Source: a bacterium (lineage in GTDB: Bacteria; Zhuqueibacterota; Zhuqueibacteria; Zhuqueibacterales; Zhuqueibacteraceae). From it: a stretch of 42,393 nt of DNA. A program made the position numbers and the translations under genes. Under the pieces are notes generated by a model, which was given only the letters and a program-made list of their open reading frames with translations, was not told the origin of the DNA and searched no databases. Positions 3,672 to 38,594 of this stretch are shown here, piece after piece (position 1 is the stretch's first letter; each line of letters starts with the position of its first letter). Where the stretch lies: positions 1 to 42,393 of the forward strand of contig JBIOXB010000064.1 in NCBI GenBank assembly GCA_044869275.1, written 5' to 3'.

Positions 3672-3854
3672 GGACAATCTCAAGCATTCAAAACAAAAAG
3701 CGTAAAACTGAAAATCCGAACAATTCCGTGCTCAAAAGTTGCAATACTTTGGTAAAATAGCAAGCGGATTGAGCGGGAGTCTGCGACGAGTCTCGAGGCG
3801 AAGCTTTTGCCCGGTCAATCCGCGGAGGCGCGCAGATTTGATGAAGAGAATCAT

Positions 3855-6383: not shown

Positions 6384-6415
6384 TTGTGCTCCCTGCCGCG
6401 GGCAGGCAGAGTTCT

Positions 6416-9088
6416 TTACTGTTGAGGCGATAATTTGAAAACCAGCGTGCGTTGCTCGCTGGCGGTGATTTCATGGTCTTGCGCGACGGCTTGATAACCG
6501 TCTTTGGCGACGCGAATGCTGTAAATTCCGGGCGCGAGCGCATGCACCGCGACGCCATACATATCGGTTCGGCTCAAGAACCTTTCCTCATCATTTGCCA
6601 TCTCCGCATTCCGGCAGCTGATTTCGGCTCCCGCGAGCGGCGCTTCGGTCTGCTCGTCGAGCACCAGAATCTCGACGTCAACGCTGCCGGGCGACATGCG
6701 CGCGATCGCCATGGTGCTGCTCGGCGGAATCGTCAAGGTATAGGTGCCGTAACCTTCTTTGACCAAAGTGACCGTATAGGTCAGCGGCAGCAAGGTGAGC
6801 TCGCACGGGGTTTTGGTTTTTAGCCGTGTGCGCCGGTCACCATACACCAGCTCGGTCACTTGCGCGCCGATATCATTGTCACTGGAGTCAGCGGCTTCTT
6901 TGGCAAATACGCGCACCACGCGCGACAGCATTTCATCATATTCTTCGGGCGAAGCTTCGTCCACCATGGTCTCGAATGTTTTCGGCAAATAACCCGGTTT
7001 TTGCAGCGTAATCGCATGCGAGCCCATGGGCAGGAGCAGCTCGGTGGCATAGCCGGTGACGCCGACCGGGCCGCCGCTGCCGTCGAGAAAGATTTCCGCC
7101 AGGCTGGGCGTGGAATTGATTTTGATTTGCTTGGCAAAAAATCCGGCGACCACGAAATGCTCGCGCTGTCCTTCAATGCGCTCGAATTTCCACAAGCGGC
7201 GGTCCTCGATGGTCTCCGCACCTTCCAGCGTACTCAGCGTGAAGCCGCTCAACGCCATCAAGCCCGGCTTGCGCAATTCGATTTTTAGCGGATCGCCCAC
7301 TTCGACCACCGCACGGCAGGGTGTGGGCTCTGCGTAGGGGATGCCGTTCAAATACACTTCTGCACCCGGTGGCTGTGAGGTGATTTCCAGAATCATTTTG
7401 AACCGGAAGATGTAAGGCTGATCACCCTCACGCTTGCTTTCGCCGGCGACGGCCACGCCGCCCTTGGGCAGCACTTGGATCGAGCGCACGATAGGCTCGA
7501 AGCGCGGCAAGGTCAGCGTGAGCTTGTGCACCCCCGGCGCGATGGCGTCGAGCGCGAGCGGCGTGGTCTTGGGGAGCGGCTTGTCGTCCAAATAGACTTG
7601 CGCGTTGGGTGGAAAGGAAACGATGCGAATGGCTGGCGGAAAAAGATAGTCGTACACTCCCGCGCCCAGCGTGGTCCAGCGCATGAAAATATCCACGATC
7701 AAAAACAGCATGAAGGCCGCCAGCACGCCGGCGCCAGTGCGCAGAATCGCCTGCCGGTGCGTGCGCGCGGAAAGCCGCACGACGTCGATGATCGTGCGCA
7801 CCTCGCCTTCTTCCTCCTCTTCACCGATCACGCGATAGTACGCGCCTTCGGGGGGCGCGGCGAGGCCGCTAAACGGAGTCAAGTCGTTCTCCGCCTGCGG
7901 CGTCACTTCCACTTCCACGGGCGTTTCGTCTTGTTCGATTGCGCCATTGCCGGAAAAAGCCGAAAGGAGATTCGCGTGGTCTTCGTTGAGCTCGAGCACC
8001 AGTTCTGTTTCTGGCGTTTGCAATTCCGGCTGCGCCCGCTTTTCCCCGGCTTGAGGCAGGGTGATTGGAATTGACATTGTGGCCGTCTCCTCAAAATCCG
8101 CTGAGAGATCGGACGCGACCTCATGAAATGGAGCCGTTCTGGGGAGTTGCCTCGCCGGCGCGATTTTCTGCACCATGGTGCCCAGTTCCAGGGCGTAATC
8201 CGTGGCTGGAGCGTGCGCCGAGAGATAGTTCATCAGCTCGAGATACATATGATTCGCGGATTGATAGCGCTGCGCTGGTTCTTTCTGCAGCGCGCGCGCG
8301 AGGACATTCGCCAGCAGGTCCGGCACACCGGCGTGTGACAGCGAAGACAAATCCCACTGGCCGGAGCGAAGTTTTGCGATGGCGGCTTGGGGATCTTTTT
8401 CGGGAAAAAGACGCTTGCCGGTCAGCAATTCATAAAACACCACGCCCAGCGCAAAGAGGTCCGCGCGGTGATCGAGGCGGGTGGTTTCGACTTGCTCTGG
8501 CGCGAGGTAGCCCAGTTTCCCTTGAATCAAGACTTCGTCGTTGCCGCGGGCCAGCCCCAGACCGCGGCGCCGCACGCCCGCCAGGCCGAAATCGATGATT
8601 TTCACCTCCCCGAGGCAATTGATCATCAGGTTCCCCGGCGAAATATCCTGATGCACGAGCTGCAGCGGCTGGTGGGTGTCGGGGTCACGGCGCGTGTGCG
8701 CATAGTCCAAACCAGAGCAGACTTCGGAAACGAGAGCGGCACACAGATGTGCGGGCAATCCGGAATTTTCCTGGCGGTAGGCTTTCAGGAATTGGCGCAG
8801 ATCGGCGCCGTCAACGTACTCCATGATAATGTAGAACTGTCCGCCGGCATCGCGCTTGATGTCGTAGATACGGATGACGTTGTGGTGGTTGAGGCGGGCG
8901 ATGGCCAGCGCTTCCGCTTGAAACAGATCGACGTACTTGGCCTCGCCGAGCAATTCCGGCGGGATGGTTTTGACGGCGACGGGTTTGTCGAACAATAAAT
9001 CACGGCCAAAAGAAATGACGCCGAATCCTCCGCGCTTAATTTCTTCGAGAATTTCGTATTTGCCGTCCAGTATTTTTACGGCTTCCAT
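6416..9088 (-). CDS. Hanks-type transmembrane Ser/Thr protein kinase with extracytoplasmic PEGA repeats and a C-terminal carboxypeptidase-regulatory-like domain
   Basis: RGGFGVI, VAVK, FQAEA, HQDISPGN, DFG, GKLGYLAPE, DLFALG; TM AGVLAAFMLFLIVDIF; PEGA units SFPPNAQVYLD, SQPPGAEVYLNG, STPSLAEIFLDG. Confidence 0.93.
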   Translation of the reverse strand: MEAVKILDGKYEILEEIKRGGFGVISFGRDLLFDKPVAVKTIPPELLGEAKYVDLFQAEALAIARLNHHNVIRIYDIKRDAGGQFYIIMEYVDGADLRQFLKAYRQENSGLPAHLCAALVSEVCSGLDYAHTRRDPDTHQPLQLVHQDISPGNLMINCLGEVKIIDFGLAGVRRRGLGLARGNDEVLIQGKLGYLAPEQVETTRLDHRADLFALGVVFYELLTGKRLFPEKDPQAAIAKLRSGQWDLSSLSHAGVPDLLANVLARALQKEPAQRYQSANHMYLELMNYLSAHAPATDYALELGTMVQKIAPARQLPRTAPFHEVASDLSADFEETATMSIPITLPQAGEKRAQPELQTPETELVLELNEDHANLLSAFSGNGAIEQDETPVEVEVTPQAENDLTPFSGLAAPPEGAYYRVIGEEEEEGEVRTIIDVVRLSARTHRQAILRTGAGVLAAFMLFLIVDIFMRWTTLGAGVYDYLFPPAIRIVSFPPNAQVYLDDKPLPKTTPLALDAIAPGVHKLTLTLPRFEPIVRSIQVLPKGGVAVAGESKREGDQPYIFRFKMILEITSQPPGAEVYLNGIPYAEPTPCRAVVEVGDPLKIELRKPGLMALSGFTLSTLEGAETIEDRRLWKFERIEGQREHFVVAGFFAKQIKINSTPSLAEIFLDGSGGPVGVTGYATELLLPMGSHAITLQKPGYLPKTFETMVDEASPEEYDEMLSRVVRVFAKEAADSSDNDIGAQVTELVYGDRRTRLKTKTPCELTLLPLTYTVTLVKEGYGTYTLTIPPSSTMAIARMSPGSVDVEILVLDEQTEAPLAGAEISCRNAEMANDEERFLSRTDMYGVAVHALAPGIYSIRVAKDGYQAVAQDHEITASEQRTLVFKLSPQQ

Positions 9089-15527: not shown

Positions 15528-15601
15528 GGGCCCTTAGCTCAGCAGGTTAGAGCGACGGACTCATAATCCGTTGGTCGTAGGTTCGAACCCTACAGGGCCC
15601 A
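15528..15601 (+). tRNA. tRNA with CAT anticodon, most likely tRNA-Ile2 (lysidine-modified); CCA not encoded
   Basis: Acceptor stem GGGCCCT/AGGGCCC, D arm GCTC/GAGC, anticodon arm ACGGA-CTCATAA-TCCGT, T arm GTAGG-TTCGAAC-CCTAC, discriminator A. C4:G69 and C5:G68 (TilS determinants) present; no C1:A72 mismatch or triple G-C anticodon stem, so not initiator Met. Confidence 0.93.
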
Positions 15602-15648
15602 CCGCTTTTCCACTTGCTTCTTGGCTGAGATTCACTATTTTGAAACTA

Positions 15649-15684
15649 TGCAAAACTTTTCCAAGCCTCAGGAAAGGTTTTGCA
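15649..15684 (+). terminator. 14-bp hairpin downstream of the tRNA (terminator or activator-binding palindrome)
   Basis: TGCAAAACTTTTCC-aagcctca-GGAAAGGTTTTGCA followed by CCTTTCTT. Confidence 0.45.
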
Positions 15685-15831: not shown

Positions 15832-15848
15832 CTGGTACGGCGTTTGCA
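15832..15848 (+). promoter_or_regulatory. sigma54 (-24/-12) promoter motif upstream of the TonB-dependent receptor operon
   Basis: CTGGTACGGCGTTTGCA = GG-N10-GC, close to consensus TGGCAC-N5-TTGCA. Overlaps a TTGCAT-N16-TATAAT sigma70-like motif (15844-15871). Confidence 0.6.
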
Positions 15849-16053
15849 TTTATTGATTTGCCACATATAATCGGTAGGTCGTGTCTGGAAGCATCTTGCC
15901 TCGCTTGGCTTTGAGAGTTGTTTTCCCCATTCCTGTGAAACATGGCACCGCTTGCGAAGTCACTTGGTTTTCGGAGCGGGCGGTGTCGTCATTCTCTGCC
16001 GCATATCTTCAAAATTCGCGCTGTGTTGAACTCTAGATTACGGAGGAGTATGT

Positions 16054-19000
16054 ATGATCCCAACGAGAATGCGTAGTCTGGGCATCATCCTCGTCGTTCT
16101 GCTTTGGGCTACGTGGGTGCTGGCTGGCACGACGGGAAAAATTGCCGGAAAAGTCGTCGACCGTGAAACTGGGTTGCCGCTGCCGGGAGCAAATGTCGTT
16201 ATTGTGGGCACGACCTTGGGCGCCGCCACAAATCTTGATGGGGAATATTTTATTTTGAATGTGCAGCCTGGAACGTATGAAGTTCGTGCTTCTATCATTG
16301 GCTATACCAACCTGGTGGAAAAAGGCGTCCGCGTTTTCGCCGATCTCACCACCACCATTAATTTCTCGCTGCCTTCAGAAACCCTGCAACTGGGCGAGGT
16401 GGTGGAAGTGGTGGCGGATCGGCCGCTAATTCAAAAAGACGTCACCGCTTCCGTCAAAGTCTCAACCGACGACCAAATTCAATCGCTGCCGATTACCACA
16501 GTGAATGACGCGGTGGCCTTGAACGCCGGCGCGCAGGGGACCGGCAACAACCTGCACATTCGCGGCGGCCGCGCCGGCGAGACCGCTTATTTGGTGGACG
16601 GCGTGAGCATCGAAGACCCGCAAACGCGCACCATCGGCTTGACTGTCGGCCGCTCCGCGTTGAGCGAGCTGCAAATCATCTCCGGCGGCTTCAATGCGGA
16701 ATACGGCAATGCGCAATCCGGCGTCATCCTGTTGAATACACAAGAAGGCAACAAAGAGCAATACAACGGCCACGTTTTTTATCAAACCGACCATTTCGGC
16801 GACAGCCAACTGGGAGAAAGCTCGCAAAACTTTGATTGGTACGAAGGCAGCCTCGGCGGCCCCGAGCCGATCACAACTTATCTGTTGCCCTCCATCGGTT
16901 TGAAGATTCCGGGCTACATGACGATTTATCTGCAAGGCGAAACCCGTTTCAACGACCGCGCCAACTACCACGAAAATGCGATTGCCGACATCAACGCCAA
17001 ATCGCCGATACAAGAAACCACGCAAATCAATACCTCGCCGTTCTTGCGCAATGAAACGATCTTTGGCAGCTTGTTGGGCCTCGGCGACAATCGTGAGAAC
17101 GTCTTCCAAAATTGGGACACCAAATTGTTGTGGCAATTGGCCCCGAACAAGAAATTGACCTTCGGCTATCGCGGCAATGCCAATAATACCCAGGGCTGGA
17201 CCTTTCAATTTGGCCGGGACGTGCGGGAATTGGTGGCGAAGTCGCATGAATTGGGCATCAGTGATTTGATCGACCAAGACGGCGACGGCCGGCGCGATGA
17301 AGAATTGATGGATGGCATCGATAACGACAGTGACGGCCGCATCGACGAAGACAACAATCTCGATCAGAACTACTATAAGGGTGATTTTGCCTGGGGACTT
17401 GACAATGACGGTGACGGCCGCACCGACGAAGAAGCGCTCAACGCCCTCGATGACGACGGCGATGGCCGGGTGGATGAAGACTTGCAAGGCTATGATTGGA
17501 AAGGATACGACAACATCGCCCGCACCGAGTTTCGCGCCAACCAACTCAACTTGAATTGGACGCACACGCTCAATGCCAAAACGTTTTATGAAGTGAAAGC
17601 AGGACGGTTCTATACCTTCACCGGCACATTGCCCAAGCTCGGCAAAGACGGGCGCTCGCGCTCCAGTTTTGAAGAATTGGATGCCTGGGTGCGGGATTAT
17701 GATGCGATCGTCGCCACCGGTGTGCCGCTGGCAGACCTGCCGTTTTTGATCGAGCCTTATCGCGGCTTTGGCACGCCCGCCGAAATATTCCAGGATTTGA
17801 ACGGCAATCGCAATTACGATCCGGGAGAACTGTTCGAAGATTTCAATGGCAACGGCTTGTACGATCTGAACAACGATCCCGCCGCCAAAAATTCGAACCA
17901 AGTTTGGCAACTGCAGGGTGCCACCCATCCTTTTCGCGGCCAAAACATCAACGGCGTATATCGGTTCAGTGATCGCGCCGCTTTCGACAAGCGTTCCTCA
18001 TTGAACTATTCTCTCAAGTTGGATTTGACCAGCCAGGTTACCCAAAATCATCAAGTCAAGAGCGGATTGGAAGTCAACTATTTCGAGCTGCGCAACACCA
18101 GCCGGCAGTTGTTGGGTCCTTACGACGGGCGCGGTTTGTTCGGCAATTCTTACTCCGTTTTTCCGAACTGGCAAGCCGGGTACATTCAGGACAAAATGGA
18201 GTTCAGCACCGCCATCGTGAATTTAGGCATGCGTGTCGAACGGTTTGACGCCGGCGAGCAGGTTGCCACCCCGGATACTTCCGTGGGGGTGCCGCGCTAT
18301 ACGACGCCCAACGTTAAATGGAGCGTGCTGCCGCGCGTCGGTTTCTCTTTCCCGGTGACCGAGCGCGATATGTTCTACTTCAGCTATGGGCATTTCTACC
18401 AACGGCCACAGTTGACCAACGTCTACACCCAGGTCAATCAGCTCTTGGACAGCCCGAATTCCATTATCGGCAATCCCGACTTGGATCCCGAACAGACGAT
18501 TCAATATGAATTCGGCATTCGGCATCAGTTCGGCCTGAATACGCTCTTCTCCATCACCGGTTTTTTCAAAGATATCGATAACCTGATCCAAATCCGGCAA
18601 GAATTCGACACGGCCGGCAACACTTTTTACACGTACTTCAACGACACCTATGGCACGGTCAAAGGCCTGGAATTGCAGATGAATCAACGCGCCGGCCGCT
18701 ATTTTTCCGGCGATGCCACCTATACTTTCCAAGTTTCCAAAGCCACGCATTCTGATCCGCGCGACACTTATGCCACGCTCGATGTTATCGATGGCGTGGA
18801 GTTTCCTTCGGATTGGGATCAACGCCATCGTTTTGTCGTCAATCTGGATTATCACTATGGTGAGGGCCAGGGCCCGCGCTTGGGCAATTTCAACCTGTTG
18901 GAGAACTTCAATGTAAATGTGCTGGCGCAATTTGGCAGCGGCCAGCCCTACACTCCCAGTTCGCTCTCCAATGCTGCTCAGCTTGAGCAAACGAATAGCC

Positions 19001-19290
19001 GGCGCTATCCTTGGACATATTTGGTCGATCTGCGCGCGCGGCGCTTCTTTGATTTGACCCCGGGCACACGCGCGGGATTGGTTTTCGAAGTGCAAAATCT
19101 CTTGAATCGCCGCAATGCCATTGGCGTGGATGATGGCGGCACGGTGGATACCAATCGCGATTTGATCGGCTTCACCAATGCCGGCACTTCGCGTTCGCGC
19201 AATTATGGCGGTTATAATAATTCCGTCCCGATCCCGAATGCCTGGAACAACGGCCGAATTGTGCGGCTCGGTTTGAATTTGGAATTCTAG
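16054..19290 (+). CDS. TonB-dependent outer-membrane receptor with N-terminal carboxypeptidase-regulatory-like domain and Asp-rich insertions
   Basis: Signal peptide; GTTGKIAGKVVD...GAATNLDGEYFI; TonB-box-like GEVVEVVA; plug HIRGGRAGETAYLVDG...SGGFNAEYGNAQSG; barrel PRVGFSFP, GNPDLDPEQT; C-terminal RLGLNLEF; RBS GGAGG. Confidence 0.93.
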   Translation: MIPTRMRSLGIILVVLLWATWVLAGTTGKIAGKVVDRETGLPLPGANVVIVGTTLGAATNLDGEYFILNVQPGTYEVRASIIGYTNLVEKGVRVFADLTTTINFSLPSETLQLGEVVEVVADRPLIQKDVTASVKVSTDDQIQSLPITTVNDAVALNAGAQGTGNNLHIRGGRAGETAYLVDGVSIEDPQTRTIGLTVGRSALSELQIISGGFNAEYGNAQSGVILLNTQEGNKEQYNGHVFYQTDHFGDSQLGESSQNFDWYEGSLGGPEPITTYLLPSIGLKIPGYMTIYLQGETRFNDRANYHENAIADINAKSPIQETTQINTSPFLRNETIFGSLLGLGDNRENVFQNWDTKLLWQLAPNKKLTFGYRGNANNTQGWTFQFGRDVRELVAKSHELGISDLIDQDGDGRRDEELMDGIDNDSDGRIDEDNNLDQNYYKGDFAWGLDNDGDGRTDEEALNALDDDGDGRVDEDLQGYDWKGYDNIARTEFRANQLNLNWTHTLNAKTFYEVKAGRFYTFTGTLPKLGKDGRSRSSFEELDAWVRDYDAIVATGVPLADLPFLIEPYRGFGTPAEIFQDLNGNRNYDPGELFEDFNGNGLYDLNNDPAAKNSNQVWQLQGATHPFRGQNINGVYRFSDRAAFDKRSSLNYSLKLDLTSQVTQNHQVKSGLEVNYFELRNTSRQLLGPYDGRGLFGNSYSVFPNWQAGYIQDKMEFSTAIVNLGMRVERFDAGEQVATPDTSVGVPRYTTPNVKWSVLPRVGFSFPVTERDMFYFSYGHFYQRPQLTNVYTQVNQLLDSPNSIIGNPDLDPEQTIQYEFGIRHQFGLNTLFSITGFFKDIDNLIQIRQEFDTAGNTFYTYFNDTYGTVKGLELQMNQRAGRYFSGDATYTFQVSKATHSDPRDTYATLDVIDGVEFPSDWDQRHRFVVNLDYHYGEGQGPRLGNFNLLENFNVNVLAQFGSGQPYTPSSLSNAAQLEQTNSRRYPWTYLVDLRARRFFDLTPGTRAGLVFEVQNLLNRRNAIGVDDGGTVDTNRDLIGFTNAGTSRSRNYGGYNNSVPIPNAWNNGRIVRLGLNLEF

Positions 19291-19316
19291 TGCTTTGTTC
19301 TCGGTATCTTTGTGCA

Positions 19317-19418
19317 TGTCATTCCGTAGTCCCGACGCTTCGGGATTCCCACGCGCTTGCGCACGCCTCGGATTCCGAGCAATGTGCATACACTTGGGAA
19401 GATGCTTACAGAATGACA
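19317..19418. repeat. REP-like palindromic element (TGTCATTCCGTA...TACAGAATGACA)
   Basis: 12-bp terminal inverted repeat with one mismatch, internal TCCCGACGCTTCGGGA hairpin. Confidence 0.55.
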
Positions 19419-19492
19419 GTTCGGAGTGGGGGAAGTAATTCTCAGATGCCCACAGAATCTGCATATGCTATGAAAGTAGGGAAGGAGTATTC

Positions 19493-21673
19493 ATGAGACT
19501 TGCAAGACTCATCAGCGTGGCGCTGCTGGCGATCATGCTGGTAACGGCAGTGACGGCGCCAAACGCGTTCAGCCGGGAGCGAAAGACCAGGAAAAAGCAG
19601 GCCGCACAGCCCGCTGACTTGGGTCTGTTCAAGCCCAACGCCATTGCGCCCATTCGCTTTGCCGTGCACGATAAGGGCCTGCAATGGTTGATGATGGCGA
19701 ACTGGGGAGAATTGGGCAACCCGGACGACCGCCCTCCCGGTCCGCCCACGCCTTTTCATCCCTCTTCTTCACAACGCGATTCCAAACTGGAATATCCCGG
19801 CGGTACGGGCACGCGTTTCCTGTTTTCCGGCGGCCTCTGGGTCGGTGCGGTCCGGAACGGTATTCCGATCGTGACCACCGTCACCGATGGCGACAATGGC
19901 ACGCAAGAGGTTGGCCCCTTGTCGACCTGGCTTTATCAAAGCACCGATGATGCATTCAAGGAAAATGATGATGACGGTGACTGGACTATCGCGGACGATA
20001 TGAACGGCGATGGCACGCCCAGCAATGACTGGGATGGCCCGAACGCCGACGCCAACGGCGACGGCATTCTCAATTATGATCCCGAGCCCCACATTGATGA
20101 GGATCAGGTTGGCGACATGTCTGCGGATTTCTTGGACAACGACTTTGACGGCTTGATCGACGGGGATGACGCCGATTTCGACGGCGACAAGGTGCCGGGA
20201 GCTTTGGATGATGACGGCGACGGCAAGGAGGACGAAGATACCACCGCCCGCGGGGCGCAAGAATGGTACACCGCCTATGCCGATACCTGCCGGGATTGCT
20301 TGCGCGATTCTGACGTCGATGGTTTCACCCCGCTGGGCGTGCGCGTGGTGCAACACACCTATCAATGGGCTGAAACTTTCCGCGATGATTTCATCATTCT
20401 GGAATATTTCGTCACCAACATTGGCACTGAAGTTCTGAGTAACGTTTTTTTGGCAACCTTTTTCGATTTTGATGCGCAAATCGAATCGCAAGGCACGGCC
20501 GGCTCTGAAGACGATATCACTTTCTTCATTGATTCATTGGGCACCGCCATCGGCGGCGACGACGATGGTGCGGACATGGCATCGCAATTTTTCGGCATTC
20601 GCGTACTGGAGACACCGCGCACCGGCGTCGGGTTTTCTTATTTGAATTTTGAACGTATCTCCGGCGGCGATCCGAATGACAACGTGCAAAAATACACAAA
20701 AATGTCCAGCGGGGTACGCGACCCGGACCAGTTTGTCAACGGCGATTGGCGCTTCCTGTTTTCCTTTGGTCCGCTGGGTGACGTCGCACCGGGTGAAACC
20801 CTGCCGGTGACGCTGGCCATTGTCAGCGGCGGGCAGGCCGGGCTTTCCACGGAGGAAAATATTGCGCTCATTGCGCAAAATTCCCGCCAAGCCCTGGCTC
20901 TATTCCAAAATGATTTCCGCGGCCCCACCGCCCCCGATGCGCCCAACTTCACGGTCGAAGCATTGGAGCGCGCCGCGCGCATCACCTGGGATGATCGCGC
21001 CGAGCGTTCGGTCGACCCCATTTCCAAAACTCTCGATTTCGACGGCTATCGTGTCTGGCGCTCGCTCGACGGCGTGAATTTCACCGTGCTCGCAGATTAT
21101 GACGCCGTCAACGGCGTGGGCTTTGACCGCGGCTTGCCGTCCAAAAACGCACAGGGAAGATACGAGTTCATCGATCGTGGCGTGCCGCCGTTGGTGCAGG
21201 TGAAATACGTGGTCACGGCCTATGACAATGGCGATAATGGCGATGGCATCAATCATCCGGAGACCGATCGCGTTTCCGGGGGTGTCAGCGTGCTGGAAAA
21301 CTCACTGGGTGTGACCCGGCAAAAAACCGCGGTGCCCAATTCCGCGATCCAAGCGACGTTGGACAATGTCTATGTGGTGCCCAATCCCTACGTGGGTAGC
21401 TCAGAATTCGAGCGGTTTGGCCGTTTTGACGACCAGGGCAACCGTACCTTTCCCAAAGTCATCCAGTTCGTCAATTTGCCGGCACAAGCGACCATTCAAA
21501 TTTTTACGCTCGCCGGTGATTTGGTGCAAACCCTGGAGCACAACGACGGCACCGGCGTGGCAGTGTGGGATTTGCAGACCCGCTTACGCCAGGAAGTTGT
21601 CGGGGGTATTTACATCTATCGCGTCACTGGCGGCGGTCAGGAAAAGGTCAGCAAGTTTGTGGTGGTGAAATGA
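19493..21673 (+). CDS. Secreted protein with Asp-rich repeat insert, FnIII-like domain and T9SS-like C-terminal domain
   Basis: Signal peptide; EYPGGTG..LFSGGLWVGA; Asp-rich region; PDAPNF...ITWD...FDGYRVWRS...YVVTAYD (FnIII-like); tail VYVVPNPY...IQFVNLP...IFTLAGDLV...WDL...GIYIYRV...KFVVVK. Confidence 0.8.
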   Translation: MRLARLISVALLAIMLVTAVTAPNAFSRERKTRKKQAAQPADLGLFKPNAIAPIRFAVHDKGLQWLMMANWGELGNPDDRPPGPPTPFHPSSSQRDSKLEYPGGTGTRFLFSGGLWVGAVRNGIPIVTTVTDGDNGTQEVGPLSTWLYQSTDDAFKENDDDGDWTIADDMNGDGTPSNDWDGPNADANGDGILNYDPEPHIDEDQVGDMSADFLDNDFDGLIDGDDADFDGDKVPGALDDDGDGKEDEDTTARGAQEWYTAYADTCRDCLRDSDVDGFTPLGVRVVQHTYQWAETFRDDFIILEYFVTNIGTEVLSNVFLATFFDFDAQIESQGTAGSEDDITFFIDSLGTAIGGDDDGADMASQFFGIRVLETPRTGVGFSYLNFERISGGDPNDNVQKYTKMSSGVRDPDQFVNGDWRFLFSFGPLGDVAPGETLPVTLAIVSGGQAGLSTEENIALIAQNSRQALALFQNDFRGPTAPDAPNFTVEALERAARITWDDRAERSVDPISKTLDFDGYRVWRSLDGVNFTVLADYDAVNGVGFDRGLPSKNAQGRYEFIDRGVPPLVQVKYVVTAYDNGDNGDGINHPETDRVSGGVSVLENSLGVTRQKTAVPNSAIQATLDNVYVVPNPYVGSSEFERFGRFDDQGNRTFPKVIQFVNLPAQATIQIFTLAGDLVQTLEHNDGTGVAVWDLQTRLRQEVVGGIYIYRVTGGGQEKVSKFVVVK

Positions 21674-21676
21674 GCA

Positions 21677-21801
21677 GTGAGACGTGAGACGATAGATGTG
21701 AGACGTAAAACAGACAAGGTGGAGCAATTACGCATTACGTCTCACGTCTTACTTCTCACGTCTTTCTTCTCACGTCTCACGTCTATCGACTCCCGTCTCA
21801 G
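21677..21801. repeat. Heptamer tandem repeats in inverted orientation (GTGAGAC)n...(GTCTCAC)n
   Basis: gtgagac gtgagac gatagat gtgagac gtaaaac ... gtctcac gtcttac ttctcac gtctttc ttctcac gtctcac gtctatc gactccc gtctcag. Confidence 0.85.
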
Positions 21802-21824
21802 CGAAAAACTCGGAGAATTCGAAT

Positions 21825-22847
21825 ATGAAAAGATACAGTACACTTCTTCTCGCGCTATTGCTGCCCGCGGCCACTTTTGCCATCGAGCGCGTGGGCACGA
21901 CCTCGTTTCAATTCCTGAAGATCCCGGTCGGCGTGCGCGGTATTGGCATGGGCAATGCCTATGTCGCAGGTGCCGTGGACGCTTCCGCGGTGTATTGGAA
22001 TCCCGCCGGACTGGGCTGGGCCACTCATCGCGAAGTCCTGTTCACGCACATCAATATGCCGGCGGATATCAACTATGACAACGTCGCGTTCCTGCTGCCG
22101 TTTTCTGCGTCGGCCGGTAACTTTGGCGTGAACATCAGTGTGCTGCACATGGATGATCTCGCAGTGCGCACGCCGTACCAGCCGGAGGGCACGGGCGAAT
22201 TGTTCACCTCCTCCGATATTGCCGTCAGCCTGGTGTATTCCCGGCAGGTGAGCAACCGCTTCACGTTCGGCGTGAAAGCAAATTATATCCGCGAAGAATT
22301 GGCGAACTTCGTTTCCGACGGCGTCAGCTTCGACGCCGGCCTGCAATATCAAACCGATTTTCGTTCTCTGCGTTTGGGCATGGTCATTCAAAACTTCGGG
22401 CCCGACACGGATTTCAAGGGCTCCTATTCGGACTATCGCACCGCCATCAACACCGGCGGCGAAGTCCAAACTCGCGATTTCGATACCGCGCCTCTGCCTA
22501 TCACCTTCAAAACCGGCTTGATCGCCGATATGGAAACCATGCTGGGCATGGACATGGGTGAAAATATCAAAGGCAACCTCGCCGGACAATTCGAGCATCC
22601 GGGTGATAATAAGGAGAGGTTGAATGCCGGCGCGGAGCTCACTTTCAACGAGCGGTTCTCCCTGCGCGGCGGATACAACTTCAATTATGACACCGATTCC
22701 TTCACGCTGGGCTTCGGCGTCAACGTGCCGTTTGCCGGCAAAAATGCCCTGCGGCTCGATTATGCCTACGCCGATATGGGCGACATGACCGACACCAGCA
22801 CCTTTCTGAACCAGCCGCACCGGTTTTCGCTGGCGTTTCAGTTCTAG
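21825..22847 (+). CDS. PorV/PorQ-family (UPF0164-like) outer-membrane beta-barrel protein
   Basis: Signal peptide; FLKIPVGVRGIGMGNAYVA...DASAVYWNPAGL; FDAGLQY; LSLRGGY-type strand; DYAY; C-terminal HRFSLAFQF. Confidence 0.9.
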   Translation: MKRYSTLLLALLLPAATFAIERVGTTSFQFLKIPVGVRGIGMGNAYVAGAVDASAVYWNPAGLGWATHREVLFTHINMPADINYDNVAFLLPFSASAGNFGVNISVLHMDDLAVRTPYQPEGTGELFTSSDIAVSLVYSRQVSNRFTFGVKANYIREELANFVSDGVSFDAGLQYQTDFRSLRLGMVIQNFGPDTDFKGSYSDYRTAINTGGEVQTRDFDTAPLPITFKTGLIADMETMLGMDMGENIKGNLAGQFEHPGDNKERLNAGAELTFNERFSLRGGYNFNYDTDSFTLGFGVNVPFAGKNALRLDYAYADMGDMTDTSTFLNQPHRFSLAFQF

Positions 22848-22916
22848 GTTTGTAGTGATGCCTTCAGGCATTCTAGCGCAATGAGCGTTTAGTCCCTAAA
22901 GGGACTACTACGAACC
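22847..22916. repeat. GTAG-type REP-like doublet
   Basis: GGTTTGTAGT-GATGCCTTCAGGCAT ... GTCCCTAAAGGGAC-TACTACGAACC; two short hairpins flanked by GTAG/CTAC ends. Confidence 0.55.
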
Positions 22917-22940
22917 CAATGCAACGCACACCATCATGTA

Positions 22941-23016
22941 TGTCATCCCGCTGTTGCGGGATCTTGGTAGAATCAATTACGGCGCTTATACGCCACAAGA
23001 TTCTTTCTGAATGACA
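22941..23016. repeat. REP-like palindromic element (TGTCATCCCG..GGGATCTTG ... CAAGATTC..GAATGACA)
   Basis: Inverted termini; the left end recurs at 32340 (TGTCATCCCGCAGGGATCTTGG) and resembles 19317. Confidence 0.55.
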
Positions 23017-23055
23017 CGCAATGAAAAATACACTCGAAGAATTAGGGAGAACGGG

Positions 23056-24816
23056 ATGAAGTCTATCATCTTTTTGCGCCGCCTCCTGCTGTTCAGCCTG
23101 TGCGGTTTGGGCGTGGCAGCATTGACGAGTTGCGGCATTACCGAGCCCAAAGACGCTGCGCTCAAAGAAAATCTCGTGCCGGACACGCGCATCACTTCCG
23201 GCCCGAAAGAATCCAGCACCTTCAGTTATTTTGTCAAAATCGCCTGGATCGGCGAGGACAATGACGGCGTCGTGAATGGCTATAATTTGGTGGTCGATGG
23301 CAATACCGTCTTTGTTACTCGAACGGATTCGACCTTTGCGTTCAGCGCCGCCAACCAGAATGAGCAACACACGATTGCAGTGGCTGCCGTAGACAATAGC
23401 GGCGCAGTCGATCCTACCCCCGCTTCGCTCACTTTCACCGCCACCAATTCGCCTCCCAACACTTTGTTGTCGATTGCCGGCAATCCTGCGCCCGGCGCCA
23501 CCTTTGGACGCGGCGCAATTTTTACGGTGGAGGGTGTTGATGTCGATAACGGACCGGAATTCTCCTACCGCTATAACCTTGACGGCGGCGCCTGGTCGGA
23601 TTGGCTGGCCAGCAACGTAATTGAGTTCAGCCAGACCTCTCCTTTTGGGCTGCTGCCGGAAGGCCAGCATACTTTCAATGCGCAAGTGCGCGACGCGGCT
23701 TTGGCGGTGGATGAAACACCTGCTTCTTTTCCGCTCGTGGTTTCCGCCGCGGTCAAGCCGGAGGTCGTGTTGAACGCGCAGCAAAACAGCCGGCCATTTT
23801 TTGAAGACAATTCCGCCTTTTCATACACCGCGGGAAACACCGTGCAGTTTTCCTGGTCGCCCGTTTTCAACTACGCCGGCGGCGCCTCCACGGGCAGCCG
23901 GTATCGCCTCGACGGCGGCGCATGGACGGAATACTCCACCGCCGTCTCTTCTTTGGAATTGACGAGTGTCGCCGCCGGCCCACATTCGTTCGAAGTGCAA
24001 TATCGCGATCTGGGCGGCGCGGAAAGCGAAATTCGAAGATTTGATTATGAAATCGTGGCCCCAACTTTCAGCGCCGGAGTATTGGTGGTGGATGACGGCA
24101 ATGGCCAGTTGGCCGGGCGGCCGCCGGCCACCGGTGATGCGAATGCCAAGGCTTTTTACAATCAGATTCTAACCGCGCTGGGCGTGAGCTATGCGATATG
24201 GGATATTCCAACGCAGGGCAATCCCACTCCCAAGAAAGGCATGGCGAATTATTCCACCGTGCTTTGGGCGAGCGATGAAGCCAATTTTGCGGTTTTGCCC
24301 CGCCAGATTCAATTGGCAACGGAATATCTGAATCTCGGTGGAAATTTGTGGATCGTAGGCTGGCGCGGCGTGAACCTGATTACCGGCACCACGCCGGTGC
24401 CGGACTTCGATCCTTCCCAAGCCGCTCCGCCGGCAAATGCCGATTTTATCTGGAACTATTTGAAGATTGCCTCGACGCGCCAAACCCCGGGTAATTTATT
24501 CGATTTCAATAGCGCAGTCGGCGCCAGTGGTTATCCGAACATGACGGTCGATACACCCAAGAATCCGATTCCCAACCGGCCCGGGCTTTCGCCCATCGAC
24601 GTGTACACCGTGCGCACGGGCGTGGCGGGTGCGGAAGCAATTTACGCTTTTGGCTCTGCTTCGGGCAATGTAGATTTTGCCGGCGCGGTTTGCGGCGTCA
24701 AATATCTCGGCACGGATTTCAAAACCGTGGTTTTTGGATTCCCGTTGTATCACATGCTTGCTGCCGAGGCGCAAGCCGCAGTGCAGAAAATCCTAACGGA
24801 CCTGGGCGAGCTGTAG
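23056..24816 (+). CDS. Lipoprotein with Ig-like/Y_Y_Y-like repeats and a C-terminal alpha/beta domain
   Basis: MKSIIFLRR...VAALTS-C lipobox; repeats YRYNLDGGAWS...EGQHTFNAQVRD and RYRLDGGAWT...AGPHSFEVQYRD; GVLVVDD...YSTVLW...YLNLGGNLWIVG. ATG 23056 has a GGGAG RBS. Confidence 0.82.
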   Translation: MKSIIFLRRLLLFSLCGLGVAALTSCGITEPKDAALKENLVPDTRITSGPKESSTFSYFVKIAWIGEDNDGVVNGYNLVVDGNTVFVTRTDSTFAFSAANQNEQHTIAVAAVDNSGAVDPTPASLTFTATNSPPNTLLSIAGNPAPGATFGRGAIFTVEGVDVDNGPEFSYRYNLDGGAWSDWLASNVIEFSQTSPFGLLPEGQHTFNAQVRDAALAVDETPASFPLVVSAAVKPEVVLNAQQNSRPFFEDNSAFSYTAGNTVQFSWSPVFNYAGGASTGSRYRLDGGAWTEYSTAVSSLELTSVAAGPHSFEVQYRDLGGAESEIRRFDYEIVAPTFSAGVLVVDDGNGQLAGRPPATGDANAKAFYNQILTALGVSYAIWDIPTQGNPTPKKGMANYSTVLWASDEANFAVLPRQIQLATEYLNLGGNLWIVGWRGVNLITGTTPVPDFDPSQAAPPANADFIWNYLKIASTRQTPGNLFDFNSAVGASGYPNMTVDTPKNPIPNRPGLSPIDVYTVRTGVAGAEAIYAFGSASGNVDFAGAVCGVKYLGTDFKTVVFGFPLYHMLAAEAQAAVQKILTDLGEL

Positions 24817-25182: not shown

Positions 25183-27015
25183 ATGCGGCATTTTTTTACG
25201 ATCACGTTGGCTGTTCTGTTTGGGATTTCCAGTCTTTGGGCGGGCGAGAAAAATCTGCGCCAAAAGTTCAACCGGGCGGACAAACAAAAAATTGCCGGGG
25301 AAGCCTGGTCCAACGGCGTTGTTTTCCCGAAGCGACCGCAGGGCACAATAGCCAAGACCAATACTCCACCTGGAACTTTGATTTTTTCCTCGAAATACGA
25401 TGTTCACACCAACGGCTCCATCCAAAATGGTCTCATCAACTATGGAGACGGCACTCTGGGGTTTGCCCGCATGGGTGCATCGGCCGTAAGCGCGACGAAC
25501 CAATTCCGGGGTTCCTACTTCTCTTACTTCGATGGCAACGCCTGGACGCCCGCAGTGCAAGTCGAGTCAGCTATTGGGCGAGGTTGGACTTCCACAGATG
25601 CTCTATCGGATGGTCGCCAAGTGATCCTCTCCCATGTCGGTGATGAATGTAATGTCGATGCGCTGAAAGGGTTCGGTATTTGGACCTCAACACTCACCGG
25701 CTACATTCAAGGCGCCGCCGACCATATTTGGGCGCGAGTGGCAGTTGATGGCGCCGATAACATCCATTTTGTCAGCACCGTGCGGGCAAGAATTGGTAAC
25801 GCGCGTTACGCCACGTATTATCCGGTGCATTCTTGGTCAACGGATGAAGGTGCGACTTTTCGGCACCAGTGGATTTTCGGCGACCCGTTTACCGAATTGG
25901 ACACCACGGGTGGTCAATGGCAGGGCTTCATGGTCGATGCCTACGCCATCGATACATGGGGACCGAATAAAGTCGCCATTGCCGCATTGTCCAGCAGCAG
26001 CATTGCAGCCGAAAACATCTGGCTCGCTGTGTCAGAAAACAACGGCGCGACGTGGACACCACAAAAACTGGAAAATAACCCCAACTTGCCTCCAGCGGGT
26101 GTTGAACAGTACGTGCCCACCACGGCTTTAGATGTGATTTTCGATAAGAACGGGAACCCGCACATTTTCAGCACGACGACTTTGGCGCTTCTGGATAGCG
26201 CAGGCACAAACGCCGACACTTTCCATAGTGTCGAAGCTCCTTTGCGTCACTGGAGCCAGGCCACTGGCTGGAATGTTGTATGCACGTATCAAAACATTCC
26301 CGGCTATGACCCAAACGAAAATCCCTTCGACGGTGGCACAGCTGGCGCCGTGAATGACGCAGGTGGAAATAACACCTTGCTACAAATGCCAAATGCGGGT
26401 GTTGATGCCGATGGAAATATTTACGTCATCTTTAACACGGTCGTTCCAAAAGATACCCTGCCAGATGGAGCTAACTGGATGGATGTTTACGCGGCGGGAT
26501 CGGGAGATGGGGGCGCTTCTTGGGGCCCGCCGGTGAATGTCACGAGCAATCCCGGTGCCCAGGATTTGTGGGGCACTTTGGCGGACTTGGTCGATGCGAA
26601 TTTACACATCGTCTATGGTACCCATAACTACCTCGGCGATTTAACCAATGCCGCCGGCGCTGCCTTGGATCATTATTATCTCGCTGTTCCGAAAACAAGC
26701 ATACCCTTGGTCGGCGGCCGTGTGGATGATCGCCCAGGCGCAGGCGTGCCGAACAGCTTCGTGCTGCAGCAAAATCATCCTAACCCGTTCAATCCTTCCA
26801 CGGCCATCACATTCTCGCTGCCCGCCAGCGTGAACGTGACGCTGGAAGTTTACAACATGGTCGGGCAGAAAGTGGCAACGCTGGTGGATGGCAAGCTCGC
26901 CGCCGGCGACCACACCGTCAACTGGAATGCGCAAGAGGTGCCTTCGGGTGTTTATTTTTACAAGCTCGAAGCGACAAACTTCAGCCAGACGCGCAAGATG
27001 GTGTTGATGAAATAG
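25183..27015 (+). CDS. Secreted Asp-box (BNR) beta-propeller protein with T9SS type A sorting domain
   Basis: Signal peptide; STDEGATF, SENNGATW, SGDGGASW; CTD QNHPNPFNPST...SGVYFYKL...RKMVLMK; GGAGGT RBS before ATG 25183. Confidence 0.85.
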   Translation: MRHFFTITLAVLFGISSLWAGEKNLRQKFNRADKQKIAGEAWSNGVVFPKRPQGTIAKTNTPPGTLIFSSKYDVHTNGSIQNGLINYGDGTLGFARMGASAVSATNQFRGSYFSYFDGNAWTPAVQVESAIGRGWTSTDALSDGRQVILSHVGDECNVDALKGFGIWTSTLTGYIQGAADHIWARVAVDGADNIHFVSTVRARIGNARYATYYPVHSWSTDEGATFRHQWIFGDPFTELDTTGGQWQGFMVDAYAIDTWGPNKVAIAALSSSSIAAENIWLAVSENNGATWTPQKLENNPNLPPAGVEQYVPTTALDVIFDKNGNPHIFSTTTLALLDSAGTNADTFHSVEAPLRHWSQATGWNVVCTYQNIPGYDPNENPFDGGTAGAVNDAGGNNTLLQMPNAGVDADGNIYVIFNTVVPKDTLPDGANWMDVYAAGSGDGGASWGPPVNVTSNPGAQDLWGTLADLVDANLHIVYGTHNYLGDLTNAAGAALDHYYLAVPKTSIPLVGGRVDDRPGAGVPNSFVLQQNHPNPFNPSTAITFSLPASVNVTLEVYNMVGQKVATLVDGKLAAGDHTVNWNAQEVPSGVYFYKLEATNFSQTRKMVLMK

Positions 27016-27260: not shown

Positions 27261-29141
27261 ATGCACAATTTTTTTACACGTTTGCTGCGAGGAAAATCCG
27301 CGTCTCTATTCTTCCTCCTGTTCTTGTTGTTTTCTGTCGCCGCTTCTGCCGCTGACAGAAGATTGCAGAGAGCGAAGCGCTTACCAATGATTGGGCCGGA
27401 TAGTCCCGGTAATGCGCAAGCACTACCGGCTGGCAATCTGCTCAAATCAGCAGCCAAAATAGGCCCGGGATTGTCGTTGTTCGGGACCACATATGATTTC
27501 ATGACCAACAATTCCATGGGCCGCCATATTCACAACTACAGCGATGGCACCATGGCCATTGCGAGAACGTCCGCTCTGGGCGCTATTGGGACATGGCCCG
27601 ATCGCGGCACCATGCATGTTTTTAACGATGGCAGTGCCTGGCTGCTGCCCGCTGCCAAAGTCGAAACCGGACGTGCTGGATGGGGCAATATCTCCGCCTT
27701 GAGTCAGGGCGAGGAGGTGATCGCTTCCCACGCCGGCCTGCAGGTAAACGTCGACGCTTTGAAAGGCTTCGGCATCTGGACGGCCAGTGTAACGGGTGAA
27801 TATCCCATCTCTCCCCCGGGCTCGGATTTGACATGGCCGCGCGTGGTGGTGGACGGGAAAAACAACATTCACATCGTGGTCACCTATTTTACTTTTGACC
27901 CCTTTCCGGGTTTGGGCGGCGGCACTTACCCCGTTTATGCGCGTTCTACGGACGGAGGTCTGACCTGGTCTTTTCGGTTCTTGTTCCAGAAACCCGGCGC
28001 AGCTCCCGGCGATCCGCCAGACACGACCGGAGGGTTGTGGGTTGGGGGCGGCGACTCCGATTCTTATGCCATTGATGCTTGGGGTGACAAGGTCGGCGTC
28101 ATCGCTTGGACCATTTACACTTTAGGTGATGGCAGTGCATTCCGCGGTCAGGATATTCTTTTTGCGGAATCAACTGACAACGGTGCGACGTGGACCTGGC
28201 AAAACATCTCCAACACCGGTACAGCCGTTCCACCGGCGACCGGCAGTTACGCGCCCACTGGCCACCTGGATCTCATTTATGACACAAACGGCGTACCACA
28301 CGTCATTTGGGGCAACTTTTTGGCATTGCCCGATTCAGCTGGCCTGAATGCCAATATGTTCTTGGATACCCTTGCCCCGTTGAGTCACTGGAGCCCTACA
28401 ACAGGTGCCTCTACCGTTGTTTCTCGTGCTGACATCGTCGACGCCGATATAAACGCCTTTCCAGGTTCTGAAACTTGGGCACGAGGCAACGGGAGTGGCT
28501 TGTTCTGGCCCTCGATCGGTGTTGGTAATAACAACACTTTGTATCTTATCTTTAGCGCGCCAACAGCCAATGATGTCGACGCTGATACCGTGGATTACCT
28601 GGATATCTATGCCACGGGTTCGGCAGACGGAGGCAGAACTTGGGGTTCACCGGCAGTGAATATCACCAATTCTCCCGGCACCGAAGACAAGTATGGCTCG
28701 CTGGCCAAATTGGTCGACGACAGTTTGCGTATCGTTTACGGCTCGGATGAGGTGAATGGCGGCATTGTCCAACCCGGCAATCAAACCACGAACTCAGCAA
28801 CTGTATATCTGGGCTTCGCTGCCAACCAAGTTCCGACAACGACTTCTGCAGTTGCTGACCGCCCGACCGGTGTTCCCGAGGCTTTCGCCTTAGAGCAAAA
28901 CTACCCAAATCCGTTCAATCCTTCCACCTCCATCGCCTTCTCGCTGCCCGCCAGCGTGGGTGTGAAGCTGGAAGTCTATAACATGATCGGGCAAAAGGTG
29001 GCTACGTTAGTGAACGGCAAACTGGCCGCAGGCAATCACACCATCAATTGGGAGGCGCGAGACGTGCCTTCCGGCATTTACTTCTACAAGCTTGAGGCCG
29101 CGAATTTTTCTCAAACCCGCAAGATGCTGCTCATGAAATAA
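27261..29141 (+). CDS. Secreted Asp-box beta-propeller protein with T9SS type A sorting domain (paralog of 25183-27015)
   Basis: Signal peptide; STDGGLTW, STDNGATW, SADGGRTW; shares NVDALKGFGIWT with the upstream paralog; CTD QNYPNPFNPST...RKMLLMK; GGAGG RBS. Confidence 0.85.
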   Translation: MHNFFTRLLRGKSASLFFLLFLLFSVAASAADRRLQRAKRLPMIGPDSPGNAQALPAGNLLKSAAKIGPGLSLFGTTYDFMTNNSMGRHIHNYSDGTMAIARTSALGAIGTWPDRGTMHVFNDGSAWLLPAAKVETGRAGWGNISALSQGEEVIASHAGLQVNVDALKGFGIWTASVTGEYPISPPGSDLTWPRVVVDGKNNIHIVVTYFTFDPFPGLGGGTYPVYARSTDGGLTWSFRFLFQKPGAAPGDPPDTTGGLWVGGGDSDSYAIDAWGDKVGVIAWTIYTLGDGSAFRGQDILFAESTDNGATWTWQNISNTGTAVPPATGSYAPTGHLDLIYDTNGVPHVIWGNFLALPDSAGLNANMFLDTLAPLSHWSPTTGASTVVSRADIVDADINAFPGSETWARGNGSGLFWPSIGVGNNNTLYLIFSAPTANDVDADTVDYLDIYATGSADGGRTWGSPAVNITNSPGTEDKYGSLAKLVDDSLRIVYGSDEVNGGIVQPGNQTTNSATVYLGFAANQVPTTTSAVADRPTGVPEAFALEQNYPNPFNPSTSIAFSLPASVGVKLEVYNMIGQKVATLVNGKLAAGNHTINWEARDVPSGIYFYKLEAANFSQTRKMLLMK

Positions 29142-38465: not shown

Positions 38466-38492
38466 GGTGAGGTCCTTTCTGTCATAGGTGCG

Positions 38493-38522
38493 ATTTTAGA
38501 GGCATTCCAGCCTCGTTGTCAA
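38493..38522 (-). promoter_or_regulatory. sigma70-type promoter for the 34425-38465 protease gene
   Basis: Minus strand TTGACA-N18-TAAAAT, then AAAGGA RBS before ATG 38465. Confidence 0.6.
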
Positions 38523-38594
38523 GATAAATATCCCGTAAAAACTCGCTCAAGCTTCGTGATTTCAGAATAACATATGGGAAAATGCTGCGCCACA

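Follow-up and report, generated by a model that had tools for sequence, protein, structure and literature searches.

A stretch of 42,393 nucleotides (contig JBIOXB010000064.1 of assembly GCA_044869275.1, family Zhuqueibacteraceae), referred to here as the window, carries on its + strand a cassette of four adjacent genes (positions 16054 to 24816) that encode, in this order, a TonB-dependent receptor, a partner protein with a C-terminal secretion tail, a small barrel of the PorV/PorQ family and a lipoprotein. By comparing the genomic context of these genes across related genomes we found that the combination of receptor, tail-bearing partner and PorV/PorQ-family barrel is a widespread module, and that the four genes likely form a unit for nutrient capture: the partner would be held beside the channel by the barrel, doing the job that SusD has in Bacteroides. 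In this proposal the partner would be exported through SprA of the type IX secretion machinery (T9SS), would be kept uncleaved, by its tail, on the barrel of its own cassette, and would sit over the TonB importer as a substrate-capturing cover that replaces SusD. To the proposal as a whole we assign a probability of roughly one half (0.52).

A preliminary description of this DNA, made from the sequence alone, had reported four co-oriented envelope genes without a SusD-like TPR lipoprotein among them, and had named conservation of their order as a check of its reading. The statements on the genes agree with the positions and families of the called open reading frames (ORFs) and with the Pfam and profile scan of 18 window ORFs, which returned no SusD- or TPR-like protein. 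The genes code for 1078 (receptor, 16054-19290), 726 (partner, 19493-21673), 340 (barrel, 21825-22847) and, as called, 601 amino acids (lipoprotein, 23011-24816) and are separated by 202, 151 and 163 nucleotides. Opposite-strand ORFs at 16462-17943, 18223-19464, 21855-22871 and 22873-23784 overlap these family-matched or conserved genes and were rejected as genes. To assess gene order, an alignment of the partner was searched against 167 genomes from the phylum, and six candidates were scored in each. It matched in 45 of the 167 at E ≤ 1e-60 and yielded 13 full-length orthologues outside the host genome, each from a different genome. The order receptor-partner-barrel-lipoprotein is kept in all 13 orthologous loci, some of which are cut by contig ends, and triads of receptor, partner and barrel recur among paralogues and more distant relatives (see below); the four-gene order is more than chance.

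The host assembly (probably KSB1; 6.67 Mb, 94% complete; the runs that contain the genome are soil metagenomes, one of them possibly its source, with no RNA run listed among them) encodes 15 receptors of the same subfamily, about 14 partners and 14 cassette-type barrels, in copy numbers close to 1:1:1, and a single SusD match (PF07980), which lies on another contig behind a receptor from outside the subfamily. The subfamily profile was first built from the 15 host receptors, and a broader profile still separates the subfamily (484-998 bits) from the rest (at most 278 bits). Eight of the 15 head a direct triad, two are followed by a partner and then the contig end, one belongs to a rearranged cassette and four lie at a contig edge; SusD follows none of them. 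Taking the barrel as the starting point gave the same picture: among 60 barrels from eight relatives (drawn from 150 listed matches) six are of the housekeeping type, and the other 54 comprise 47 in direct triads, four that adjoin a receptor in another order and three that show no receptor. Five relatives have 0-5 SusD matches as against 8-20 barrel matches. A partial scan of named records for the partner gave 75 loci, of which nine were dropped as weak matches and ten have a tail that is cut or unread. With both flanks readable, partner-type tails stand in triads in 30 of 38 loci (one, L010, assigned by eye) and alone in eight, compared with none of the five readable loci in which a homologue of the partner's main domain carries an ordinary tail. 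The titles of the records with triads include Krumholzibacteriia, Eisenbacteria, Cloacimonadota and Caldithrix, bearing in mind that such titles may be wrong. Finally, 17 of the 19 receptor matches in five other genomes (two had already been counted) comprise eight direct triads, one triad with an inserted gene, one cut by the contig end, two receptor-barrel pairs and five with neither neighbour, and, in a sample of 201 genomes from another phylum (that of genome G169), 100 contain matches to the receptor subfamily. At two places (L131-L132 on G151:C7 and L136-L137 on G150:C38) an orthologue of the cassette comes immediately after another one, of a second type that in the host occupies a separate contig (C197).

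The receptor has a signal peptide, a CarboxypepD_reg-like N-terminal domain, a plug and a barrel (PF07715 and PF00593 above cut-off), and its AlphaFold2 model (pLDDT 84.9, pTM 0.83) contains the plug and 22 barrel strands, counted by hand, that characterize a TonB-dependent transporter, as well as two very large extracellular loops. The sequence alone matched nothing in the PDB; Foldseek placed the model nearest to the classical receptors PhuR, PqqU and PfeA, with no SusC among the matches listed. Pfam adds a weak match to OMP_b-brl_4. Two elements that are conserved in the subfamily lie at periplasmic turns, namely a helix-bearing insert after the GGPEP motif (residues 272-286, ~16867-16910) and a hydrophobic hairpin (residues 935-951, ~18856-18906), and both are candidate sites for docking of the small barrel. 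One of the closest known systems is SusC/SusD (RagA/RagB), with which the cassette shares a TonB-dependent barrel whose N-terminal domain is CarboxypepD_reg-like, a gene for a large surface partner that directly follows it, a multitude of paralogues per genome, some of them near genes for carbohydrate-active enzymes, and an optional extra lipoprotein, as in the utilisomes and polysaccharide utilization loci (PULs) of the Bacteroidota. Nevertheless, the receptor reaches only 63.2 bits against the SusC/RagA model TIGR04056 (cut-off 368.25), with a match confined to its N-terminal part, the partner combines a beta-supersandwich and an FN3-like domain with a secretion tail at its C-terminus instead of being an N-terminally lipidated TPR protein, and a third, PorV-like gene belongs to the unit. 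Because the receptor fails the SusC model and no SusD-family TPR lipoprotein is adjacent, the cassette is not a member of the SusC/SusD class; it likely works in a similar way.

The small barrel (21825-22847) belongs to the PorV/PorQ (FadL-like) family, as it scores 196 bits against NF033709 (cut-off 90) and is homologous to the solved PorV 6h3i_F (profile E-value 1.8e-37), and it forms part of a cassette-specific group. It stays below the cut-offs for canonical PorV (NF033710, 63.5 of 250 bits), canonical PorQ (NF033711, 111.6 of 220 bits) and PorP/SprF (TIGR03519, 18.5 of 90.55 bits). The host genome has 20 barrels above the NF033709 cut-off, the most PorQ-like being encoded on contig C4 (182 bits). 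In 12 of 12 relatives one barrel scoring 307-331 bits constitutes a separate single-copy gene, and the four of these that were tested all pass the PorV cut-off; in a tree of 29 rows the true PorVs form one branch (support 100/100) and the cassette barrels another. The possibility that the cassette barrel is the housekeeping PorV was rejected on the basis of these scores and of the separate PorV in the relatives, so that the earlier reading, which would have failed had this been the genome's sole PorV and part of the canonical T9SS, passes this check. The true PorV gene of the relatives (e.g. L162:2483-3574) has, in at least two of them, a gene for an M6-like T9SS protein (NF052323 region) next downstream. 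In further host genes (C11:23062-24975, C34:25604-27079 and C14:31586-33700; L088, L091 and L092) a PorV-family barrel is joined to an OmpA, SH3 or TPR domain, and each of these genes lies downstream of a tail-bearing gene of its own (one codes for 4219 amino acids); these are cognate cargo-barrel pairs without a receptor.

The partner (19493-21673) matches no Pfam family over its main part, and its 30 nearest clusters in the ESM Atlas share none either; named homologues at 57% identity belong to candidate division KSB1. Its AlphaFold2 model (pLDDT 83.2, pTM 0.70) comprises, behind the signal peptide, a beta-supersandwich (residues ~54-477) with an Asp-rich insertion, an FN3-like domain (~480-615) that is corroborated by FN3 matches, and a C-terminal domain (CTD). 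Modelled as beta-sandwiches and not as TPRs, it is unrelated to SusD. The best fold match of the supersandwich is the N-domain of glucodextranase (VIA; Z 20.1, rmsd 2.9, 234 aligned), followed by N-domains of GH15, GH116, GH94 and GH65. The same domain also occurs in ordinary-tailed proteins that have neither receptor nor barrel beside them (host C230:101684-104611; L014, L016, L033, L040 and L074).

The tail is the proposed link between partner and barrel. The CTD (21353-21673) matches TIGR04183 over residues 657-724 (32 bits, cut-off 23) as well as the NF052228 region, and with a signal peptide (read from the sequence), a C-terminal Ig-like tail and a terminal lysine (K721, 97% conserved) the protein has the make-up of a T9SS type A cargo; no match to the type B domain CHU_C was found with Pfam. 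An iterated profile collected 209 tail-bearing ORFs from the host genome, and the tree of these tails unites 13 partner tails in an exclusive clade (support 0.926) within a group of 16 tips (0.948) that adds one orphan and the tails of PorZ and PorU, with roughly 190 ordinary tails falling outside. The clade is partly circular, since its 13 tails were initially picked by profile rank; independently of that selection, 12 of the 13 stand directly after a subfamily receptor or before a cassette-type barrel. In agreement with the tree, the modelled tail matches the CTD of PorZ (5m11; Z 11.9, rmsd 2.4, 28% identity, the match listed by VIA).

These relationships can be read against three precedents. 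The tails of PorU and PorZ are uncleaved, and it has been proposed that PorQ takes over PorZ at the translocon and anchors it (PMC10947112); PorV binds type A tails via a plastic hydrophobic pocket (PMC10994853); and for type B tails cognate pairs of cargo and shuttle genes, next to orphan cargoes, are established (PMC12618676). The cassette resembles PorQ-PorZ and PorV-PorU in combining a PorV/PorQ-family barrel with a cargo tail that groups and folds like that of PorZ, and differs from them in being multi-copy, with one barrel per cassette, in being tied to a TonB-dependent receptor and in having a barrel below both the PorV and the PorQ cut-off; it borrows the way in which PorQ displays PorZ but is not the attachment complex, and PorZ, PorU and the PorQ-like gene are separate genes in the host. 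With the type B pairs it shares the position of the cargo gene, directly upstream of the one for its small barrel, and the existence of orphan cargoes (PMC12618676); the tail here is type A-like and the barrel of the PorV family instead of PorP/SprF. Because the tail groups with the uncleaved tails of PorZ and PorU and because cargo-shuttle pairs are known, it is a well-grounded inference that each partner is retained on the barrel of its cassette, and we consider it highly probable, by analogy with these precedents, that the barrel would collect the partner from SprA and retain it. Alternatively, the barrel could act solely as a dedicated shuttle that takes the partner off SprA, after which the partner would be released or handed on as a diffusible, hemophore-like scavenger that returns its ligand to the receptor. 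Such a role would fit with the type B shuttles, which are encoded directly 3' of the cargo gene and set its final destination (PMC12618676), and with the presence of PorU in the host, but the position of the partner tail among those of PorZ and PorU, and not among the ordinary ones, makes it improbable.

Whether a retained partner also covers the receptor is a separate question. Receptor, partner and barrel have mirrored trees, with r of 0.90-0.91 over 53 triads and of 0.66, 0.51 and 0.77 among nine paralogous cassettes of the host. Covariation between the proteins (mutual information with average product correction, 100 triads, effective number 79) gave top pairs with z up to 6.0 that neither rise above those within proteins nor form a pattern, and it was not used as evidence because the alignment is too shallow. 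There is a structural precedent in BamG, which belongs to the FadL family, docks on a larger barrel and bears a canopy at the cell surface (PMC12611786): as in BamG-BamH-BamM on BamA, a FadL-family barrel would be the scaffold beside a larger barrel with extracellular subunits; the canopy there consists of lipoproteins and the machine folds proteins, whereas in the cassette it is a transporter that forms the larger barrel, and the contact is a proposed one. Taken by itself, the step in which the partner would act as a physical lid in direct contact with the receptor has even odds. The principal competitor is that the partner is held by the barrel but acts as an independent surface binder or enzyme, comparable to SusE/F or SusG, that enriches or trims the substrate without capping the channel. 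Several partners per receptor at some loci, receptors without a partner, and orphan and tandem partners (four in a row at L030, with no barrel in view) would all suit such an arrangement, as would the fold, which is common to carbohydrate-active enzymes. On the other hand, there is no clear shared catalytic set, as just six residues of the N-domain (G72, P102, P142, N309, D341 and G426) are more than 85% conserved over 100 triads; the best fold matches are N-domains of enzymes of the GH15/GH94/GH65 type, which we take to be non-catalytic; and a cassette-specific barrel that is co-inherited with each receptor is harder to explain without contact. We therefore regard an independent binder or enzyme as unlikely, yet as the most serious of the alternatives.

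A number of observations weigh against the proposed barrel-held lid. The export route is incompletely shown, because GldM and GldN were found neither in the host nor in five relatives (a search for these two proteins that had no positive control) and because the true PorV gene is absent from the host assembly, where it probably falls in an assembly gap; of the components for which the preliminary description had proposed a check, SprA and PorU are present above cut-off, as is PorZ, and the motor subunits GldM and GldN are the part that was not recovered. As an observation in its own right, the occurrence of SprA, PorU and PorZ without detected GldM/GldN hints at a T9SS that lacks the usual motor. 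The branch of the cassette barrels in the 29-row tree has a moderate support (83/77). With regard to retention, the earlier suggestion that the barrel holds the partner's CTD gains indirectly from the tail tree and the modelled tail. The lid is weakened by the partner-type proteins without an adjacent barrel (15 of 45 loci with a readable downstream flank), eight of 38 having neither receptor nor barrel beside them, and by the subfamily receptors that lack both neighbours (five of 17). The loci at which one receptor and one barrel flank two to three partner paralogues (L131 and L141-L145) are unlike a fixed 1:1 arrangement, and the mirrored trees speak of co-inheritance, not of contact, as linkage alone suffices to produce them. 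The partner is possibly an enzyme, since lyases, mutarotases and GH174 share the supersandwich fold and since many polar residues, and an Asp/Arg/Trp set, are conserved in the partners of this cassette subtype. Moreover, no firmly assigned carbohydrate-active gene adjoins this copy of the cassette.

That the unit serves uptake is suggested by the paralogous cassettes, which adjoin genes for glycan degradation and sugar binding (GH16, GH5, CBM6, CBM4_9, glucoamylase, heparinase-like, deacetylase and sugar-binding genes); judging by these neighbours and by the linkage to the receptor, nutrient uptake is the probable function of the cassette. A unit that is mainly surface-sensing, adhesive or an Oar-like structural assembly would find an argument in the Asp-rich arrays. 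Of the receptor's calcium-loop-like Dx[DN]x[DN]G motifs, putative metal-binding sites, four (17272-17481) lie in the long extracellular loop that joins barrel strands 5 and 6 and the fifth (17839) lies in the one that follows, and the partner contains six (residues 169-282, 19997-20338), many of whose Asp residues are invariant among 73 homologues. These arrays could serve adhesion, and the weak OMP_b-brl_4 match and the lack of a substrate clue at this locus point the same way. Against this stand the complete plug and 22-strand barrel of the receptor model, 11 TonB_C matches in the host genome, the degradative and sugar-binding surroundings of the paralogues, and the absence of Asp-rich arrays from most paralogous cassettes, so that we consider such a role very improbable. 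The sensing function that had been entertained along with uptake found no support, as the scan of the window ORFs revealed neither a sigma/anti-sigma pair nor another regulator. The numbers of motifs in receptor and partner do correlate (Spearman 0.74, 53 triads), but this is not evidence of contact because it is driven by a single clade of orthologues.

The lipoprotein, with its likelier start at an ATG (23056-24816) preceded by a GGGAGA element, has the lipobox LTSC followed by Ig/FN3/PKD-like repeats and a C-terminal alpha/beta domain of uncertain family, matches no family in Pfam or the profile models and has weak leads in the ESM Atlas for its C-terminal domain (score ≤0.90). Its earlier description as a cassette component is correct for this subtype, in which it is fixed (13 of 13 orthologous loci). 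It is optional in the family at large, with homologues at three of the nine complete or rearranged cassettes of the host, and was therefore rejected as a core part; our guess is that it is an accessory surface binder.

Downstream of the cassette, on the + strand, lie the genes for an Asp-box/BNR protein with a sialidase-like propeller (25183-27015) and for its paralogue (27261-29141, 45% identical), both with an ordinary CTD. A homologue of the Asp-box protein is clearly present 3' of the cassette in seven of the eight orthologous loci with readable sequence there, the conserved locus probably extends beyond the four genes to include both propeller genes, and the two proteins provide the best clue to this copy's substrate. 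On the other side, metK is followed by a tRNA-Met(CAT) gene (15528-15603) and a hairpin of 14 pairs, which together (15528-15684) separate it from the cassette, and between hairpin and receptor gene lies a sigma70-like promoter match (15843-15871, + strand, 10/12, a match to the consensus only, such sites numbering 16 in the sequence as compared with 9.6 ± 3.2 after shuffling). Because of this upstream arrangement the cassette likely has its own promoter. The search for a riboswitch or other RNA upstream yields no clue to the substrate, as the tRNA is the sole match at Rfam gathering scores. The metK gene likewise precedes the orthologous cassettes at L134, L138 and L140. Elsewhere in the window, both on the minus strand, are a signalling cluster (2019-9088) of a PP2C phosphatase, a protein with FHA domain and FG-GAP propeller and a Ser/Thr kinase with PEGA repeats, and two large tandem S8 proteases with T9SS-like tails (34425-42368).

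The module is real, conserved and built from known parts, and apparently it is undescribed: our literature search, beyond whose reach were most subscription papers and all supplements, found no published description of the triad. The accessible parts of the genome papers on Caldithrix (PMC5317091) and Melioribacter (PMC3534657) do not mention it, nor is it described in those of PMC11285876, PMC11205867 and PMC12204202, and the word 'TonB' is absent from the main text of PMC12618676.

A broader view, which we put forward tentatively, is that the cassettes represent a second, independently evolved class of lidded TonB transporters across many FCB phyla, with supersandwich proteins, exported by the T9SS, as exchangeable lids that would dock by a dedicated tail on a fixed membrane core of receptor and barrel, so that one channel could be re-specified by swapping partners, and with the calcium-loop arrays as the contact between lid and channel in the present subtype. 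The prediction of PULs relies on susC/susD pairs, and groups like KSB1, Calditrichota, Ignavibacteria, Cloacimonadota, Eisenbacteria and Krumholzibacteria seem poor in uptake loci as a consequence. The triad is a marker for the uptake loci of these groups, with about 14 copies in the host as against one SusD, and it would account for the 8-20 genes per genome that are annotated as 'PorV/PorQ family'. The cognate code of tails and shuttles, known for type B tails, would also be widened to include a type A-like subtype, and, if the lid is true, this would mean that the display parts of the T9SS have been recruited into nutrient import.

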